A program made the translations under genes and the position numbers. The notes under the pieces were generated by a model. That model was not told where the DNA came from. It saw only the letters and a program-made list of their open reading frames with translations, and did no database searches. Positions 1 to 7,016 of a stretch of 64,000 nucleotides of DNA are shown here, in pieces (position 1 is the stretch's first letter; each line of letters opens with the position of its first letter). Source of the stretch: Coraliomargarita sp. GTDB lineage: Bacteria > Verrucomicrobiota > Verrucomicrobiia > Opitutales > Coraliomargaritaceae. The stretch is from NCBI GenBank assembly GCA_965216325.1, contig OZ244160.1, forward strand, positions 2,848,001-2,912,000, in the 5' to 3' direction.

Positions 1-230
1 CTCAAAGGGCTACTGGCGTCTGGCTCAAGCGCTGGGCACACAAACGGCAATGAGCAATCAATGGCTAGAGGAACAAGGCCTGATCAACATCAGGCAACAA
101 TGGTGGAGTTTAAAGCTCCTGCGTATAACCGCCTTAAAACAGACTGCGTAACACTGTGATCAGTCTGGCTGCGGACCCGCACGGCAGGTGGTGTGAGAGC
201 CGGGGGACTTAGGGCCCTCGGCTACTCGAT
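1..230 (+). mobile_element. Group IIC-attC intron B, copy 1, 3' part (RT C-terminus, DV, DVI); continues beyond the left window edge
   Basis: Encodes maturase-X tail SKGYWRLAQALGTQTAMSNQWLEEQGL. DV ACCGCCT...AGGTGGT (128-192); DVI with bulged A ending CTACTCGAT. Identical to 4696-4925 except position 213. Abuts R'' GTCGAA of cassette 4. Confidence 0.9.
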
Positions 231-236
231 TTCGAC

Positions 237-914
237 CTATTTTAGTTTTATCGTCGGGGTGCCCTCTAGGTCGAAAATGACTAGATAAATTTCTTTTCGA
301 TGGTCTCCTTCTACTATCTCAAGCTTTTCAAGTAGAGCTTCATCGGAAAATGTTAATCTGAAAGCGTGGCTGCTTGGCATTGTGACTATGACAACATTCT
401 CATTTTCATTTTCTATGTCTCCGCCTAAGGAGGTAAGTTTCTCAGTGAGGTATTCTCTTTTTCTTCCCAACTGAATGTAGTCATTGCCGATGGGTGACCT
501 ATTCGCTTGGACTGCTAGTTTAAAGCCATCCTGCTTCATCAGAAGAAGTTCAGCCCCACTTCTTCTACCGTTTTCTTTTATTACATAGTATCGAACGTAG
601 TAGACATCTTTGTGAGCAAGAGATTTTTCAGATGGCAGTATGTGAATCTCTGACAGATCAGATGCTTTCAAAACGGTTCTCCACGCTGACTCAGGTTTCT
701 TATTCGATGGCCATTCAATCCAAGTTCTACTGAAGTATGGTTCTAGCTTTTCATACTCTTTATTGTAAGCGGCAGTCAGAATTTTTATCGCGACATGATC
801 GGGTGATCCTGGCTCAACATCATATTCTGTAATGCTCACTGGTGTCGGGCGAGCGGATACGCTGTTTATGCATGCTAAGAGAATGCTGAATGATACAATG
901 ATTTTCTTTTTCAT
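237..914 (-). CDS. Integron cassette 4 gene, hypothetical exported protein (225 aa)
   Basis: ATG follows R' GTTCGAC after a 6-nt leader. N-terminal signal peptide MKKKIIVSFSILLACINSVSA. AT-rich. Stop lies immediately before R''. Confidence 0.8.
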   Translation of the reverse strand: MKKKIIVSFSILLACINSVSARPTPVSITEYDVEPGSPDHVAIKILTAAYNKEYEKLEPYFSRTWIEWPSNKKPESAWRTVLKASDLSEIHILPSEKSLAHKDVYYVRYYVIKENGRRSGAELLLMKQDGFKLAVQANRSPIGNDYIQLGRKREYLTEKLTSLGGDIENENENVVIVTMPSSHAFRLTFSDEALLEKLEIVEGDHRKEIYLVIFDLEGTPTIKLK

Positions 915-920
915 TTTTTC

Positions 921-977
921 GTCGAACGTGGAGGACGGGCGCGGCTTCAGCCGTTGTCCCGCTCCGACTTGATCTGC
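921..977 (-). other. attC: attC site (57 bp, intact) of cassette 3
   Basis: Top strand reads GCAGATC-aagtc-GGA(G)CGGG...CCCGTCC-tccac-GTTCGAC. This is R''/5-nt spacer/L'' with an extra base at position 4, then L'/5-nt spacer/R'. Confidence 0.85.
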
Positions 978-1549
978 TTTGTTTTTTCTATGGATTCGTG
1001 AATATATGCAGGCGCACTGTCTGGCACATCTGAAGCACGAACAAGACGATACCGAATCCAATTTGAACTCTCTGCTTCTCGTTGGGCCTCCTCGTCCACA
1101 AAGGACTGAAAATGAATTCCGGAAGCAGTTAATCCGATAGTGGTTTCGGCGAAACGTAGGATGTAATCTTTAGGGCTAACCTTCCCTGTCGGCCAACCAC
1201 TGCTTTTACTATATAGTTCACTTTGAAGTGGTATTGTTATCGTCGATTTATGGTCTACATCATCAACGAGAATCTTTATTTCATTTGCATCACTGTTTGC
1301 TAAAAATTTGACGCTGCCGCTAGGGGCGGGTGCTTGGAAAGCACTGAACCAATCGCTTCGCCCATCGGACTTCTCTTTCACGAAAAAGTAAAGCTCTTGG
1401 GTCTGGTATGATTCAATCGGCAAATCCATCTCGGCGGGAACGAAGTGAAGTGCACGTGCAAGATCAGATGCCGAAACGATTTCTTTTTCTTTGTTACAGC
1501 CGATTGATAGCAAAACGGCCAAGCCTAATATCACGTTGGTTACTTTCAT
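947..1549 (-). CDS. Integron cassette 3 gene, putative lipoprotein (200 aa)
   Basis: Lipobox LSIGC after a hydrophobic stretch. Starts 7 nt after R' GATCTGC. ORF runs into its attC and stops in the attC loop. Confidence 0.8.
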   Translation of the reverse strand: MKVTNVILGLAVLLSIGCNKEKEIVSASDLARALHFVPAEMDLPIESYQTQELYFFVKEKSDGRSDWFSAFQAPAPSGSVKFLANSDANEIKILVDDVDHKSTITIPLQSELYSKSSGWPTGKVSPKDYILRFAETTIGLTASGIHFQSFVDEEAQREAESSNWIRYRLVRASDVPDSAPAYIHESIEKTKQIKSERDNG

Positions 1550-1556
1550 TTTATTC

Positions 1557-1616
1557 GCAGATCGTAAAGAGGGGTAACTAGTGGGCGCAGCACACTAGTT
1601 GACCCTCTCGCCTGGT
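1557..1616 (-). other. attC: attC of cassette 2, split by intron A (remaining 5 nt of R'' at 3523-3527)
   Basis: Removing the intron gives TGCGAAC-caggc-GAG(A)GGGT(C)AACTAGTG...CACTAGTTACCCCTC-tttac-GATCTGC (65 bp) with two extrahelical bases. Confidence 0.85.
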
Positions 1617-3522
1617 GTGTGCCGAGCATGCGCTCGATGTAAAAGTGGTTAAAGTCCGCTATAGTAAGAACCTAATCATAAAATGAAAGAACTATTACCA
1701 GATGCCAAGGGCGTTGTCGTGAGGCAGGGTCTGAAGGAAGGCTATGGGAAAGCTGCGAGCTGATGAACAAAAACTGCATAGAAGGCCGACGTGGTCTGGT
1801 GAGCTGGCACCACACAGCGAAACCGCTAGGTTCAGCCACGCAGGTAAATGCAGCAGTTGTGCAGCGGAGCATCGAGTGCTTACCTCGGGAGGCCTCAGCG
1901 AGTGGCATGGGTTGGCTTAAAGGTGTCAATCAAGCCCATGCACCTGAGTCAGTAATGACACAGGCGGCACTGGTTGAGGATTCAGCAGCGAGCATAGTAG
2001 TCATGGAACCGCGAGCCATGAGTAGGTCGATAGGCCGAAGAGCATGGAGGTCTCGAACGTGATGAAGGCTCAAACCGTATATGGGCAGTCCGACCCGCAG
2101 GCAGGTTCACCTCTCACTGGCACAGACCCGTGTCGAGAGCTGGGCGATGTTTGTGCAGGGAAGCATGGGGCTGCCGAGCAAGAACTACTGGAGTTGATGC
2201 TGGACCGCGCTAATCTGAACGCAGCTTGGCGGCGTGTGCGCAGCAACGGTGGAGCTTCTGGCATCGACGGTATGTCGATCGAGGACTTTCTGCCGTTTGC
2301 GCGCGAGCACTGGTCACGGATCGAGACTCAACTGAAAGAGGGAACCTACCAGCCAGCCGCGGTGCGCCGCGTCTGGATACCGAAGGACAATGGGGAGAAG
2401 CGCCCACTGGGCATCCCCACGGTGTTGGATCGTGTGATCCAGCAAGCCATCGCTCAGGTAATTGCGCCGATCTTTGAGGCACAGTTCAGTGAGCACAGCT
2501 TCGGCTTTCGTCCAGAACGCCGAGCCCATGACGCAGTCAAGTCGATCCAAAGCGCAGCCACTGAAGGTCACGTGTACGCGGTCGATTGTGACCTGAAGTC
2601 ATTCTTCGACACGGTCGATCATCGTGAATTGATGCAGCGTCTAGCGCGCCGGATCAAAGACGGGCGCGTGCTGCGCCTGATCTACCGCTACCTGAAAGCA
2701 GGCATCCGCTTGCCCGATGGCAACACCGAGGCAACCGCCGAGGGGGTGCCACAGGGGGGACCGCTCAGTCCGCTACTGGCCAATATCATGCTCGATGACC
2801 TCGACCATGAACTCGAACAACGCGGGCACCGTTTCGCACGCTACGCCGACGATTTTGTTATCGTCGTCCAAAGCAAGCGAGCGGCTGAGCGCGTGATGCA
2901 CAGCATCAGTGGCTTCATCGAAGCGAAGCTCAAACTGATCGTGAATCGCGAGAAAACGAAGGCGGGTCGGCTGACACAGTGCAGCTTCCTCGGATTCGTG
3001 ATCTCGCCCAAGCGTATCCGCTGCTTGGATACCAAACTGCACACGTTCAAGAAGACCATCCGTCAAATCACCTGTCGCAGTTGGGGCATCTCCATGGAGG
3101 AACGCCTCGAACGTCTACGACTGTATGTGAATGGCTGGCTGGGTTACTTCGCTATCGGTGTGCCGTTCAAGGATATCCGCAGCATGGATCAATGGCTACG
3201 AAGGCGTGTGCGCTTGTGCTACTGGAAACAGTGGCGTTTACCGCGCACGCGCTACCGCAAGCTACGCGCGCTTGGGATCAACCCGAAGACGATTAAGCAG
3301 GCTAGTCGTTGTCGAAAAGGCTACTGGCGCTGCAGCAAACTGCGAGTGGTCAGTATCGCGATGAACAACCAATGGCTCGCCGAACAAGGCTGCCCCTCAA
3401 TCAAAGAACAGTGGCTCAAACTCTGCTATCCAAACGGATAGCTCTAACGGAACCGCCGTGCTACGGAGCCGTATGGCCGGTGGTGTGGGGGCGGGAGTCA
3501 GTGATGGCTCCCGCTACCCGAT
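1617..3522 (+). mobile_element. Complete group IIC-attC intron A
   Basis: 5' end GTGTGCCGAGCATG and 3' end CTACCCGAT. IIC-type DV at 3452-3484 with CGC triad. Candidate EBS1 ACCA (1809-1812, in a GCTG/CAGC stem loop) is complementary to 5' exon TGGT. Inserted at GT|T of the attC bottom strand, just after the hairpin. Confidence 0.93.
2044..3441 (+). CDS. ltrA: Group II intron reverse transcriptase/maturase, no endonuclease domain (start uncertain)
   Basis: Motifs RPLGIPTVLDRVIQQA, DCDLKSFFD, GVPQGGPLSPLLANI, RYADDF and X-domain GWLGYF. Confidence 0.95.
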   Translation: MEVSNVMKAQTVYGQSDPQAGSPLTGTDPCRELGDVCAGKHGAAEQELLELMLDRANLNAAWRRVRSNGGASGIDGMSIEDFLPFAREHWSRIETQLKEGTYQPAAVRRVWIPKDNGEKRPLGIPTVLDRVIQQAIAQVIAPIFEAQFSEHSFGFRPERRAHDAVKSIQSAATEGHVYAVDCDLKSFFDTVDHRELMQRLARRIKDGRVLRLIYRYLKAGIRLPDGNTEATAEGVPQGGPLSPLLANIMLDDLDHELEQRGHRFARYADDFVIVVQSKRAAERVMHSISGFIEAKLKLIVNREKTKAGRLTQCSFLGFVISPKRIRCLDTKLHTFKKTIRQITCRSWGISMEERLERLRLYVNGWLGYFAIGVPFKDIRSMDQWLRRRVRLCYWKQWRLPRTRYRKLRALGINPKTIKQASRCRKGYWRCSKLRVVSIAMNNQWLAEQGCPSIKEQWLKLCYPNG

Positions 3523-3592
3523 TCGCATTTTGGGCTCCGCCAACAGATCAACTTCAGACTACTACAATTTGATTCAATTTAGCGTGTGAAAA

Positions 3593-4454
3593 TTAGAAGA
3601 AATCATCGACGGCCTGGTCTTCTTTAGCCTCTTCCTGAGCTTTTCTCTGTTCCATTTTATTAATTAAGTCTTCCTCGGCTCCTTTAAAGAGTGGGGTCGA
3701 ATGAGTCAGCAGGTATATTTCCTCGATGTTACGGGAATTCACTTTTTCCCATAGGGCATCGATCATAGCTCGGACTTCGGGCATAGTGTTGTAAGCTGAT
3801 CTGTCTACATTCATATTTCGCATCATCTTATCTTTGGTGAGGCCCTCTTTTGCACTCTCTGATAAATTACCGTAAATTTTAGAATAGATAACTCGACCGT
3901 AATTGGTGCTATTCGAATGTGTTACACGAGTTTGAAAACCATCTATTCTTTCCTCCTTGCTCTCATCGAGCTTACCAAACCTCTTGCGAATCGCTGCGTC
4001 CATTTTAGGTTCAAGATCGATATCAACTTTTTTAATTACCCCGAAAAACCGATTATTTATGGATAGAACTGTTGAACCGTCATGTTGGATCGCAGTGATA
4101 TAATTTCTGATCTCACTTAATTGAGGAAATGCTTTCAAGATGTCTGCGTCTAATTTATTGAGTGATACGTTAGGCAACTGATAGGAATCTAGCTGGGTTT
4201 TCTGATATATCTTGAGGAAATCTTCGATCGGAATTCCCCAGGGAATATCTTTATACCCTTTGTAAACGGACGAATCTGCAGTGACATGATTTTTGACTAG
4301 TTCATCAATTGCGGCTTTGGACTTTTGCTCTTGTCGCTCAATCTCAGCCTTACGCTCCTCTTCGGCAATGCGTCGCTCTTCCGCTTTGCGGGCTTCCTCA
4401 GCCTTACGCTCCTCTTCGGCAATGCGTCGCTCTTCCGCTTTGCGGGCTTCCTCA
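3593..4454 (-). pseudogene. Integron cassette 2 gene, 5'-truncated (charged coiled-coil repeat plus unknown domain)
   Basis: AT-rich ORF. Its apparent N-terminus (4455-4507) is antisense intron-B sequence. Native start and R' (expected GTTCGCA) are missing. Confidence 0.7.
4347..4454. repeat. Two perfect 54-bp tandem units encoding EEARKAEERRIAEEERKA
   Basis: 4347-4400 is identical to 4401-4454. Confidence 0.95.
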
Positions 4455-4925
4455 CCCGTCGCAACTGGAGTGTGAGTATGGAGTATCGTCTGTATCAGAT
4501 CCGCCAATACGTGCGGGGCTGGATGGGCTACTTCGGACTCAGTGAAAACTCCAGTTTATGGATCTGGATTGACCGCTGGCTTCGCAGGCGAGTTCGCATG
4601 TGCTACTGGCGCATGTGGAAACGCCCGCGACGTCGCTATCTCAATCTGGTGAAAATTGGCTCCAATAGTAAGTTTGCTGGTGGCTTTGCTAAAAGCTCAA
4701 AGGGCTACTGGCGTCTGGCTCAAGCGCTGGGCACACAAACGGCAATGAGCAATCAATGGCTAGAGGAACAAGGCCTGATCAACATCAGGCAACAATGGTG
4801 GAGTTTAAAGCTCCTGCGTATAACCGCCTTAAAACAGACTGCGTAACACTGTGATCAGTCTGGCTGCGGACCCGCACGGCAGGTGGTGTGAGAGCCGGGG
4901 GACTTAGTGCCCTCGGCTACTCGAT
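4455..4925 (+). mobile_element. Group IIC-attC intron B, copy 2, 5'-deleted
   Basis: Translates TRRNWSVSMEYRLYQIRQYVRGWMGYF...WLRRRVRMCYWRMWK, homologous to the intron A X domain. DV/DVI as in copy 1. Abuts R'' GCAGAA of cassette 1. Confidence 0.9.
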
Positions 4926-5293
4926 TTCTGCCTCCAGGCGGTTAGTGTGTCGATTTGCTCTAACGTGTGTTTGTTGGTATCCCAAACTGGAGTGAAAAGT
5001 GAGATTCTATTTGGAATAAGTGGCACGACATAAATATGGATAGATGAATTCTCATCTTCTTTATATCTAATGTCGATATAGTTGAAAGTCTTTGGCTTCG
5101 CCGTCCTAGGAAAGGTTCCGAGTTCGATAGATTCTATTTTTTCTTTTTCTATCCTAAGGTTTAGCCTTCCTGATGTGCATTCGATCGAATCTGGGTTGAT
5201 TCTGAACTTTCCTTTACTTTCATAAACCCAGAACCATCTGCCAACGAAAGATGCGTTATGTTCAGGTGTGGAGAAGAATGCTTTAAATTCCAT
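4904..5293 (-). CDS. Integron cassette 1 gene, hypothetical (possibly PH-like fold); C-terminus reads into the intron
   Basis: ATG 7 nt after attI core GTTCTGC. No stop before R''; terminates at TAA inside intron DVI. Confidence 0.7.
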   Translation of the reverse strand: MEFKAFFSTPEHNASFVGRWFWVYESKGKFRINPDSIECTSGRLNLRIEKEKIESIELGTFPRTAKPKTFNYIDIRYKEDENSSIHIYVVPLIPNRISLFTPVWDTNKHTLEQIDTLTAWRQKSSSRGH

Positions 5294-5300
5294 TTCTTTC

Positions 5301-5340
5301 GCAGAACAGTGTTATGTAACGGACTCAGTCCGTGATTAGC
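5301..5340 (-). other. attI: attI recombination site (core G|TTCTGC at 5307-5301)
   Basis: GTTCTGC precedes the first cassette and is complementary to that cassette's R'' GCAGAA(C). No attC-type hairpin upstream. Lies 5' of the divergent intI. Confidence 0.75.
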
Positions 5341-5702
5341 TGGTTTAGGGATTTGTAAAAAACTTACGTTTTTTGATTTAAGTGATCTTGTTAGGGGGCT
5401 TTACACCAGTAGTAGAGGTGGATTGGAATCGAGTGATGGTTTTGAGGTAAGTCAAAATGTGAAATGGCGGCAAGGTTTGTTTCCTCAAAATCATGCATTC
5501 GTGGGCTTTTTTTGGGCAAATGTATGATTTGCTTGTTTTGTGATGTGGTGGTTTGTGTGGTCGGCCTGTTGTAGGGTGTTGATTGCTAGATGTTTGTGTG
5601 TGTTGCGGGGCGGTTTTGAGTGGTTTGGGTCTCCTCAAAAACATGCATTCAAATGTGAGTCTGCGAGTTGAATAATGAACTGATGTTTACATGTTGGGGT
5701 GT

Positions 5703-7016
5703 ATGAAAACAGTTCATTTTCCACGTTGGGCGGAGGTCTTGCGCGAATCCTCTTTAGGGGAGGAGTTGCGTTCGAGTTATAAGGTCACGATTCGCTGGTA
5801 TTTGAGTTGGTGTGCCAAGCAGCATATCGGCTGTTCGGTTGAGTCGGCGCGTGCCTTTGTTGATTGGGCAATCAATGAGAAGCAACCTAAAGATTGGGTC
5901 ATTAGCCGTTGGCAGGCTGCGATTCGCTGGTTCTTCGTGACAGCAAAGGAGCAGGCGGCACCAGGGGGCGGAGTGAGTCAGGAGCAGAGTGGGGACGCTC
6001 CTGCGCTAACTGCACTGGAGCGGCGAGATTTGGAGGCGGAAGAGCGGGTTGAGGCGGCGAACGACGATGAAGGGCGGATTTTAGCGGTGATGCGACGACG
6101 CGGGATGGCTCTGCGAACTGAGCGGGCCTATTTGGGGCACTATCGTAGTTTTGTGCGCCAGTCGGGTTTGGTGGATGGCTGTTTGATGTCGGCTTCGATG
6201 GTTAAGCGCTACTTGGATTATTTGGCGATGGAGCGTGCAGTGGCGTCCTCGACGCAGAAGGGGGCGCTCAATGCCTTGGTGTTCATCGCACAGGCTGTTT
6301 TCGGCATTGAACTGGGGGATATTGGTGACTTTGTGCGCGCGAAGAATCGGAGGCGTATTCCGGTGGTGATGACTAAGGAGGAGTTGCGTTTGTTCTTTCA
6401 GCAATTGAGCGGTGAGAAGCTATTGATGGCCCGGGTGCAATATGCGGCCGGCTTGCGTGTCTCCGATCTATGCCGTTTGCGTGTGCAGGATTTGGATCTG
6501 CAGCGTAATCAGTTGGTTGTGCGCTGTGGTAAGGGGCACAAGGATCGAGTGGCACCCTTACCTGAGTTGTTGAAGTCCGAATTGGAGGCGCAGTTGTCTG
6601 TTGTGCGGAGCCTATTCGATGAAGATTTACAGCGTAGTGATCTTGCGGGGGTTTATCTGCCTGAGGCCTTGGCGCGGCGACACAAGAATGCGGGGCGAGA
6701 TTGGCGTTGGCAATGGGTGTGGCCGAGTCGTAAGATCTCCACGGATCCACGCGGTGGGAAACGTCGTCGGCATCACGTGTTGCCGAATACTTATCAGCGC
6801 ATTGTTCAAGATGCAGGAAAGGACGCTGGGCTGACCAAGCGAATTACGAGTCACACCTTACGGCACAGTTTTGCCACGCACTTACTGGAGGATGGCGTGG
6901 ACATCCGGACGGTGCAGGACTTGCTCGGACACAAGCATATCGAGACGACCCAGATTTACCTGCACGTCATGCAGAAGCCGGGGGCGGGGGTGCGCAGCCC
7001 GCTGGAAACGCTTTGA
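5703..7016 (+). CDS. intI: Integron integrase with N-terminal extension (alternative start 5691)
   Basis: Tyrosine recombinase motifs [17 protein letters not shown] and LLGH...TQIY. IntI-specific insert [11 protein letters not shown]...WQWVWPS...DPR...RRHH. Confidence 0.95.

Follow-up and report, generated by a model that had tools for sequence, protein, structure and literature searches.

Probable group IIC-attC introns in the attC sites of a small chromosomal integron of a Coraliomargarita-like verrucomicrobium

What is known of group IIC-attC introns comes, to our knowledge, almost entirely from clinical class 1 integrons, in which they occur rarely and singly. They are placed in class C of the group II introns, a class defined by a reverse transcriptase (RT) without an endonuclease domain and whose classic target is a GC hairpin followed by a T-run (PMC4424553). 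The attC introns have been published as one monophyletic RT lineage within class C (PMC3001079), their consensus target is TTGT/T (PMC7923331; here and below the slash marks the insertion point or junction), and an outward promoter in domain I or II is documented for S.ma.I2 and other IIC-attC introns (PMC3001079). A literature search on group II introns in verrucomicrobial integrons gave nothing beyond a passing mention of a BLAST hit, and no literature was found on attC group II introns in sedentary chromosomal integrons. The stretch analysed here, called the window, comprises 64,000 nucleotides (nt) of Coraliomargarita sp. (positions 2848001-2912000 of G000:C1, a single-contig genome of 3.06 Mb). 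Its left end very probably belongs to a small sedentary chromosomal integron of a marine Coraliomargarita-like Opitutia, whose attC sites have been colonised by endonuclease-less, hairpin-targeting introns. We named the two intron lineages A and B.

The array of cassettes reaches 6.4 kb beyond the left edge of the window. Extending it in this direction, as the initial annotation had proposed, gave seven attC sites in total, four with introns, one with an insertion sequence (IS) and two free. All open reading frames (ORFs) of the array are on the minus strand, except those inside the IS91-like element, and all introns are on the plus strand. The initial annotation counted three of four attC sites as occupied, by A once and by B twice. 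The count is right for the window and the two lineages are real, with the qualifications that the whole array has four of seven sites bearing introns, that attC1 is a deletion scar, that B at attC1 is only a 473-nt 3' remnant, and that the two B elements belong to different sublineages. The three R'' boxes of the window directly follow the 3' ends of introns that are antisense to the cassette ORFs, as had been stated, with these ends now corrected to 230, 3522 and 4925. The features are listed below from intI toward the far end of the array; positions left of the window are given on the scale of locus L001.

5691..7016, plus strand: intI, coding for an integron integrase of 441 amino acids (aa) (TIGR02249 and alignment with IntI1)
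5301..5460, no strand: junction of cassette 1 with attI (GCAGAAC/AGTGTTATGTAAC) and attI region (from the sequence and two further genome copies)
4904..5293, minus strand: C1 ORF, 129 aa, no family; its last seven residues (the first of them partly) and stop are read from the intron remnant (ORF list)
4926..4931, plus strand: TTCTGC, the R'' box left over from attC1, complementary to GCAGAA at 5301-5306 (6/6)
4453..4925, plus strand: B2 remnant, the 3' 473 nt (RT X domain and domains V-VI); homology begins at 4453; GIIM match
3593..4452, minus strand: C2 ORF, probably 5'-truncated, coiled-coil-like repeats, no family; a frame without start codon that runs into the antisense of the intron remnant
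3523..3527, plus strand: TCGCA, the rest of attC2 R'' (GT/TCGCA), whose partner box was lost with attC1
1617..3522, plus strand: intron A, full-length, 1906 nt (RF02001)
2044..3441, plus strand: RT/maturase of intron A, 465 aa (TIGR04416, RVT_1, GIIM)
1557..1616, plus strand: 5' part of the attC2 bottom strand (R' GCAGATC, L', loop, L'', ending in CTGGT), found with covariance model R1
947..1549, minus strand: C3 ORF, 200 aa, lipoprotein-like N-terminus, no family (ORF list)
921..977, plus strand (bottom strand of the site): attC3, uninterrupted, GAT/ATC variant of the R box; seed site with the shared covarying stem
237..914, minus strand: C4 ORF, about 225 aa, hydrophobic signal-like N-terminus, no family (ORF list)
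231..236, plus strand: TTCGAC, the rest of attC4 R'' (bottom strand), which with the G of the 5' exon gives GTTCGAC, the reverse complement of GTCGAAC at 921-927
1..230, plus strand: 3' end of intron B1; the whole intron spans genome 2846339-2848230 (1892 nt), with its start 1661 nt beyond the left edge of the window
L001 16279-16338: attC4, occupied by full-length B1 (R1)
Between attC4 and attC5: C5, a YefM/YoeB pair
L001 14992-15059: attC5, with a 652-nt ORF-less B-type intron (genome 2845060-2845711)
Between attC5 and attC6: C6, a ParD-like/ParE-like pair
L001 11871-11925: attC6, split by the 2.5-kb IS91-family element
L001 11926-14444 (genome 2841926-2844444): IS91-family element, with a tyrosine recombinase of 279 aa and a Zn_Tnp_IS91/Y2_Tnp transposase of 367 aa
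Between attC6 and attC7: C7, a 78-aa PLDc_N protein
L001 11554-11610: attC7, free
Beyond attC7, plus strand: dgkA, ftsZ and ftsA, at the far end of the array

Intron A matched RF02001 with 126.6 bits at 1713-1878, and its RT scored 397 bits against TIGR04416 (cut-off 300). The only Pfam domains recovered in this RT were RVT_1 and GIIM, without HNH, a domain that was detected in the control, the RT of a Bacillus thuringiensis plasmid (L113). About 508 nt of the intron lie outside the ORF, and folding gave a domain V of the 34-nt type and a bulged A in domain VI. The genome holds five copies of intron A, 99.5-100% identical and with open RT frames, which we read as a sign of activity; the genome-wide copy counts given here leave out 24,000 nt that read N, in which further copies could hide. 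All five copies follow attC hairpins. One of them is nested one base inside the 5' end of B2 and fixes the 3' boundary of A, since the next T restores the GTATGCC start of B2.

Five B-type elements were found in the genome, namely B1, B2, the B2 remnant and two ORF-less copies. All adjoin attC, with the hairpin at the 5' exon in four of them and R'' alone kept by the fifth, the remnant. The RT frame of B1 is open across the edge of the window (622 aa, no stops) and carries RVT_1 and GIIM, again without HNH. B1 starts with GTATGCC directly after the attC4 hairpin, its predicted domains V and VI fold, and at the B boundaries the exons restore boxes that are perfectly complementary to their partners. 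The remnant in the window is 99.8% identical over 446 nt to full B2 (genome 553728-554173); the attC1 hairpin and the start of the C2 ORF are gone and only R'' is kept, so that attC1 is a deletion scar and not an intact occupied site. A further property of the B lineage, common to all its introns, is a conserved 33-nt hairpin in the predicted domain V, which parts the lower helix (ACCGCCT with AGGTGGT) from the upper helix and holds the RT stop codon. Domains V interrupted in this way lie at 128-196 and 4823-4891 of the window, at L001 15609-15677 and in loci L083, L090 and L091, and the insert is conserved in three genomes. The last pair of the lower helix is G:C in A and T:A in B, a compensated difference. 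No report of an insertion in domain V of a group II intron was found in the literature, and the Rfam search gave no match to RF00029 at E <= 1.

The hairpins that precede these introns are real attC sites. No attC family of Rfam matched the intact attC3 at E <= 1. When six hairpins were used to seed a profile search, about 25 sites of this kind were recovered genome-wide. Fifteen uninterrupted sites of the genome were aligned to seed the covariance model R1. They share a common architecture (xxxxAAC, a 5-nt spacer, a bulged stem, a variable loop, a 5-nt spacer and GTTxxxx), with compensatory changes in 9 of the 12 stem pairs (RNAalifold). Genome-wide, R1 had 26 matches at E <= 0.1 in 3.06 Mb, every one of them within six clusters, three of which adjoin an intI gene while two others end in an attI copy. 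On the window plus 18 kb to its left (82 kb), six sites were recovered: two seed sites, attC7 and three occupied 5' parts. The score of attC3 (63.2 bits) is by construction that of a seed member; the E-values of the non-seed 5' parts in these 82 kb were 4.7e-10 for attC4, 1.1e-5 for attC5 and 0.0012 for attC2 (window 1557-1620, 22.7 bits), and attC7 had an E-value of 2.4e-7. When R1 was run on four class 1 integron loci, the best match was the bottom strand of the aadA1 attC just upstream of the plasmid intron (E 0.005), with the remaining attC sites at E > 0.4. R1 is thus host-flavoured and nevertheless recognises a canonical attC.

At the occupied sites R1 scored the contiguous 5' parts; the sites from which introns had been removed were joined and folded separately. 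These joined sites fold no less well than intact ones, at -16.6 to -18.5 kcal/mol (z -3.9 to -4.8; attC2 at -16.6 kcal/mol, z -3.9) as compared to -8.5 to -12.7 kcal/mol for the three intron-free sites, and at occupied sites the 3' exons restore GTT. In the array at 813-819 kb, half an attC (R' box and L' arm; L005 12941-12965, genome about 818941-818965, minus strand) is joined straight to a complete attC, which suggests an earlier deletion or illegitimate exchange between sites.

The ends of the cassettes provide a further view of the same sites. The complementarity of R' and R'' reported in the initial annotation for three cassettes was confirmed for all three. With the mobile elements removed in silico by coordinates, GCAGAAC at 5301-5307 pairs with TTCTGC at 4926-4931 in C1 (6/6), GTCGAAC at 921-927 with G plus TTCGAC at 231-236 in C4 (7/7), and GCAGATC at 1557-1563 with GATCTGC at 971-977 in C3 (7/7), where GAT/ATC in both boxes is a compensated change. 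C5 and C7 each match at 7/7, as does C6 (7/7, GTTAGGC at the right end of the IS91-like element) once the IS is taken out. Complementary ends were thus found in six of six testable cassettes, or in five of six without removal of the IS, as compared to only 2 of 43 non-cognate box pairs matching 4/4 at the variable positions. C2 could not be tested because its partner box was deleted with attC1.

A and B use distinct registers of the same box. In the R'' of CTGGTT, A is inserted at GT/T and B at G/TT. The pairing of the exon-binding site 1 (EBS1) loop with the end of the 5' exon, read from the RF02001 alignment, is as follows for the two lineages and for a third family of the genome.

Terminator family: EBS1 loop ACAGA, 5' exon end UUUGU
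Intron A: EBS1 loop ACCA, 5' exon end UGGU
Intron B: EBS1 loop CCAG, 5' exon end CUGG

In all three families the 5' exon ends in four or five bases complementary to the EBS1 loop, and A cuts GT/T and B cuts G/TT in the same CTGGTT because their EBS1 differ (ACCA versus CCAG). EBS3 was not located. The targets of A are TGGT/T in three of five copies and TGGG/T in two, and that of B is CTGG/TT, one base upstream. Neither lineage has the published TTGT/T consensus, although the same spot of R'' is used; the motif differs because the attC sites of this host read CTGGTT. An array at 550-558 kb also has the A and B2 introns, in sites of the same attC family, and it is there that the nested A-in-B2 exhibits the one-base offset. 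All ten A and B copies adjoin attC sequence; as in class C, the target is a stem-loop and then a short intron-binding site 1 (IBS1), the first base of the 3' exon serving as IBS3, without a long homing site.

RF02001 had 19 matches in the genome. The third intron family has 10 copies (for instance at 1096 kb, 1142 kb and 2599 kb), all 10 of them after a GC hairpin and T-run. Its RT, at about 45% protein identity to those of A and B, has RVT_1 and GIIM without HNH; it is fully matched in six copies (43-45% identity), and the rest, with only a short RT segment, are probably ORF-reduced.

To place the introns, we compared their RTs with those of plasmids and of other genomes. The best plasmid matches to the RT of A were 44-51% identical. 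The four closest relatives that were fetched, from plasmids of Enterobacteria and Pseudomonas (44-49%), are all antisense within class 1 cassette arrays, at aadA1/qacEdelta1, blaIMP-4/qacEdelta1, aadA11/qacG and arr-2/aac(6')-Ib, and they are classical IIC-attC introns. More distant plasmid matches (31-38% identical) sit elsewhere. In a maximum-likelihood tree of 26 RTs, whose insertion-context labels were set before building and which included no curated class references, three clades were recovered, one of four RTs from the same bacterial family that includes A (support 95/100), one of seven that includes B (100/99) and one of four with the class 1 introns (91/86). The A, B, class 1 and terminator RTs clustered on short branches; L111 and L112 were placed beyond a branch supported at 89/98, and the third distant plasmid outgroup, L113, was not separated from that cluster. 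We take A and B to be group IIC-attC introns, a known kind of intron in a new host.

Related introns occur elsewhere in the family. Among 100 other genomes of the family, 11 carry an RT match at E <= 1e-60, and none of the three genomes of the same genus does (76-99% complete). The 12 family loci with a labelled 5' exon comprised nine attC-like hairpins, two terminators and one other hairpin; attC-like hairpins also precede the introns at L042 (Opitutaceae) and at L007, a plasmid locus. RT matches were present in 2 of 69 loci with IntI relatives (L042 and L029), most of whose contigs end just upstream of intI. L042, from an Opitutaceae metagenome-assembled genome (MAG), has two intact RT copies upstream of intI and on its strand, and L029 one broken copy. 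In genome G079 (contig 391, loci L091 and L098), a B-type intron is followed head to tail by another, whose GTATGCC start comes immediately after the 3' end of the first; the RT of the second carries stop codons.

The integrase of the window is intact, as it had appeared in the initial annotation. IntI scored 356.5 bits against TIGR02249 (NCBIfam; cut-off 265) over profile positions 7-315 of 315, and when it was aligned to IntI1 the catalytic R, K, HxxR, H and Y and the integron-specific insert all lined up. Unlike IntI1, it has an N-terminal extension of about 130 aa (window 5691-6086, residues 1-132), without Pfam match. The extension is present in all three intI genes of the genome (the two others being 74% and 39% identical) and is common to the full-length IntI relatives, which come from Coraliomargarita, Puniceicoccaceae and Opitutales MAGs and thus support the verrucomicrobial host that had been considered probable. 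Many IntI matches from Opitutia MAGs start at residues 1-13, so the extension is present there as well.

The attI region has two further copies in the genome, 95% and 91% identical, which close two other arrays at the same cassette junction. The three attI copies share a conserved junction xxxxAAC/AGTGTTATGTA, and the geometry is that of an attI beside intI with divergent cassettes. Genome 558788-558942 and 2278688-2278882 match window 5305-5530, with a junction that reads xxxxAAC or ATC/AGTGTTATGTA. The array at 550-558 kb has no intI, yet its attI copy is the one 95% identical to that of the window. The two attI-ended arrays without intI are probably integrons that have lost intI, or duplicated array heads, and the IntI of the window could act on them in trans. 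No Pc-type promoter stood out above shuffles in a consensus scan. Among the cassette products, C1, C3 and C4 had no Pfam or NCBIfam match, and the C2 protein had one weak match in the 100 other family genomes.

From the identities, boundaries, copy numbers, target registers and pairings observed above, we infer the following course of events. Spliced intron RNA together with its RT would recognise the folded bottom strand of attC as a class C stem-loop, and the 4-nt EBS1 would pair with the end of the 5' exon (ACCA with UGGU for A, CCAG with CUGG for B). The RNA would then reverse-splice into the GTT of R'', at GT/T for A and at G/TT for B, and would be copied to DNA from a replication primer. 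A, B, the ORF-less derivatives of B (presumably mobilised in trans) and the IS91-family element would all enter within the same three nucleotides. Insertion puts R'' 0.65-1.9 kb from R', so that the R box could not form and the attC would be dead for IntI, according to the established model of attC recombination (PMC5371416, PMC7923331). Occupied sites are thus probably lost to IntI, with only attC3 and attC7 usable, in which case cassettes 1-3 and 4-7 would be movable only as blocks. A freezing of the array, one of the two roles proposed in the initial annotation, is a reasonable inference.

Exchange between intron copies seems to have contributed to the present state of the array. Compared in blocks of 100 nt, B1 and B2 have 68-89% identity throughout the first 1600 nt, which rises to 99-100% in the final 290 nt or so. 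The two ORF-less copies have a core that is about 99% identical, 5' parts that are B1-like in one and B2-like in the other, and domain VI sequences that differ. The attC1 remnant begins inside the RT gene and abuts the interior of the C2 ORF. The shared 3' end of B1 and B2, the mosaic ORF-less copies and this remnant suggest exchange and deletion between intron copies, for which the repeated introns would provide homology (RecA-type exchange).

Four sequencing runs were examined, all of them as contigs. In two marine metagenome runs we found intron A with 13 differences in 1705 nt and 1879 nt; the contigs leave both ends of A into other flanks, so that in other strains the element occupies different sites. 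An RNA-library run of another organism (X19) also contained two short contigs from the RT region of A (depth 2-4), which does not prove that it is transcribed. Run X1 had joints from 3523 to 5305 and from 3524 to 5336, both with 30-letter sides; they were set aside as uninterpretable, and their right ends coincide with the starts of the two attI paralogues. A consensus scan for outward sigma-70-type promoters found none in the 5' parts of the introns; the consensus is that of Escherichia coli and verrucomicrobial promoters may differ. The array is directly downstream of ftsA-ftsZ-dgkA on the intron strand, and read-through from this side is, speculatively, a possible source of intron RNA.

Several observations weigh against our interpretation. 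The backbone of the RT tree was not resolved, and an approximately unbiased (AU) test rejected the grouping of all 17 attC-inserted RTs in one clade versus 6 others (p 0.015), in a small sample, for a group chosen after the tree was seen and with the result driven by one long row (L095). The published monophyly of the attC lineage was not reproduced in this small sample; A and B are filed as class C by their behaviour, domain content, RNA features and nearest relatives. The predicted insert in domain V of B could mean impaired catalysis. As the remnant at attC1 illustrates, an "occupied" site need not be a clean insertion. The promoter scan gave 4 sites in the region versus 6.0 +/- 2.2 in shuffles and no outward promoter in the 5' parts of the introns, in which they differ from the published IIC-attC introns. 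Finally, R1 was built from the sites of this very genome.

This origin of R1, together with its result on the class 1 loci, where one canonical attC was found at E < 0.01 and the rest stayed at E > 0.4, would also suit the idea that the hairpins are not attC at all but a genome-specific repeat or terminator family, entered by ordinary terminator-homing class C introns. We find this hardly credible, since all 26 R1 matches fall into the six clusters, three by intI and two ending in an attI copy, and since the sites carry AAC...GTT boxes, an unpaired spacer of 5+5 nt, a bulged stem and a variable loop. The complementary cassette ends run counter to a repeat or terminator, and the T-run of the 10 true terminator targets is absent after the attC hairpins. 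It is likewise very improbable that the introns are working parts of cassette genesis and that the array has been caught building cassettes. In the published model of Leon and Roy, the same intron present at a gene terminator and at an attC recombines and joins the gene to the attC (PMC7923331, PMC3001079); the identical 3' ends of B1 and B2 and the mosaic ORF-less copies indicate that intron copies do recombine here, and the remnant is fused straight to a gene body at 4452/4453. That fusion, however, truncates both the intron and an ORF antisense to it, which is the outcome of a deletion and not a gene-to-attC join. None of the 10 A/B-type copies is at a terminator or otherwise outside an attC site, so the initial proposal that the introns build the array is not supported, and the 10 terminator-homing introns are a family too divergent (about 45% protein identity) for homologous exchange with A and B.

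A benefit to the host, with introns kept because they freeze useful or addictive cassettes or supply promoters to distal ones, is unlikely too, although less so. Two toxin-antitoxin cassettes (YefM/YoeB and ParD-like/ParE-like) are flanked by interrupted attC sites, outward promoters are documented as mentioned above for S.ma.I2 and other IIC-attC introns, and a weak look-alike (TTGGCA, a 17-nt spacer and CATTTT) was spotted by eye on the complementary strand of A at intron positions of about 64-92. The promoter scan found none at that place and a total below the shuffled expectation, and the occupancy is patchy over the arrays (4/7, 2/4, 2/7, 1/2, 0/7 and 0/2), which fits chance invasion better, while the near-identical copies indicate a recent burst and not long retention. 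We thus prefer the colonisation of attC sites by hairpin-targeting introns. The dedicated "intron-integron system" of the initial annotation is not supported, the simplest reading being an ordinary parasitism of a favourable target, with side effects.

The introns are not alone in using this target. The IS91-family element has three copies, 99.5-99.7% identical (the two others at about 815.8-818.3 kb and 1299.8-1302.3 kb), all three between the ...CTG and GTT/GAT of an attC bottom strand and in the same orientation as the introns. By its positions it looks like an attC-specific IS. The IS1111-attC insertion sequences are transposable elements that target attC sites specifically; we know of no attC-specific insertion in the IS91 family.

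The orientation of the arrays with respect to replication may also matter. The cumulative GC skew turns only twice, at about 1.085 and 1.805 Mb; the skew is negative between these points and positive over the remainder, across the contig ends. The two arms are very unequal (about 2.3 and 0.7 Mb) and dnaA, at 866 kb, is inside the long positive stretch and not at a turn, so that the directions of replication are uncertain; this odd skew could come from a strong asymmetry of the replicon, from a large inversion of recent date or from a problem of assembly. Taking the skew at face value, the lagging-strand template would carry the attC bottom strands of five arrays, including that of the window. 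This is the minority orientation in the work of Loot et al. (2017), with 5 of 30 chromosomal integrons as compared to 25 of 30 for the other, and they associated it with hairpins that fold more easily and with small arrays, of up to 22 cassettes (PMC5371416). In the array of opposite orientation (813-819 kb), none of the seven sites is occupied by an intron and several carry CTGGTT, as compared to 9 of 20 sites in four plus-strand arrays (one-sided Fisher p of about 0.036, computed by hand on sites that are not independent). We offer an effect of orientation as a hypothesis and not as a finding. A more ambitious joint reading, which we consider rather unlikely, would have intron load set by replication orientation, exposed hairpins overrun, the domain V of B tolerating a 33-nt hairpin, and three unrelated elements competing for the GTT of R'' (B at G/TT, A at GT/T and the IS91-family element at /GTT). 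If it were true, most sites would be disabled and homologous exchange between intron copies, not IntI, would be the main driver of array change.

Parasitism of attC by introns was already known; what is new here is the host and the unusual density. One cultured-type marine genome brings together three class C families, each with its own kind of target (attC for two of them, terminators for the third), in which the EBS1 differences can be read directly as the cause of targeting. It also has ORF-less derivatives, a nested copy, a truncated scar and recombinant copies, which makes it a compact natural system bearing on the choice of hairpins by class C introns, on the function of occupied attC sites and on orientation as a protection from invasion. 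For integron annotation, it implies that arrays can be badly under-called where most attC sites are split. The window itself contributes a complete integron, a map of the whole array, an EBS1 account of the one-base offset and a contrast with a terminator family within the same genome. Compared to the array at 550-558 kb, it adds the truncated remnant, an ORF-less copy, the IS as a third element at this triplet and the lead on orientation.

Among described systems, the chromosomal integrons that Loot et al. (2017) assigned to the same orientation resemble the present one in that the array is small, with seven cassettes here; this orientation was read here from GC skew alone, and the available parts of their paper contain no passages on introns (PMC5371416). 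The IS91-family element likewise targets attC (three of three copies), as the IS1111-attC elements do, with a different transposase family (Y2_Tnp/Zn_Tnp_IS91 together with a tyrosine recombinase). The closest relatives of A and B are the IIC-attC introns of class 1 integrons (S.ma.I2, E.c.I7 and Kl.pn.I1; PMC3001079, PMC7923331), with which they share an endonuclease-less RT, a position in the attC bottom strand within R'' and antisense to the cassettes, the attC hairpin as the stem-loop of the 5' exon, a short IBS1 and a T as IBS3. They differ from them in protein (only 44-49% identity, and separate clades in the tree), in their host, a verrucomicrobial chromosome, in a 5' exon that ends in TGGT (A) or CTGG (B) instead of the published TTGT, with B one base earlier (G/TT), in that no consensus outward promoter was found and, for B, in the insertion in the predicted domain V. 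With the terminator-homing class C introns of the B.h.I1 type (Robart et al., 2007, as cited in PMC4424553), they have in common RF02001, the domain content and the use of a hairpin with a short IBS1. The 10-copy family of the same genome behaves exactly as the B.h.I1 type, whereas A and B are never found here after a T-run terminator, and their EBS1 read ACCA and CCAG as compared to ACAGA in the terminator family.

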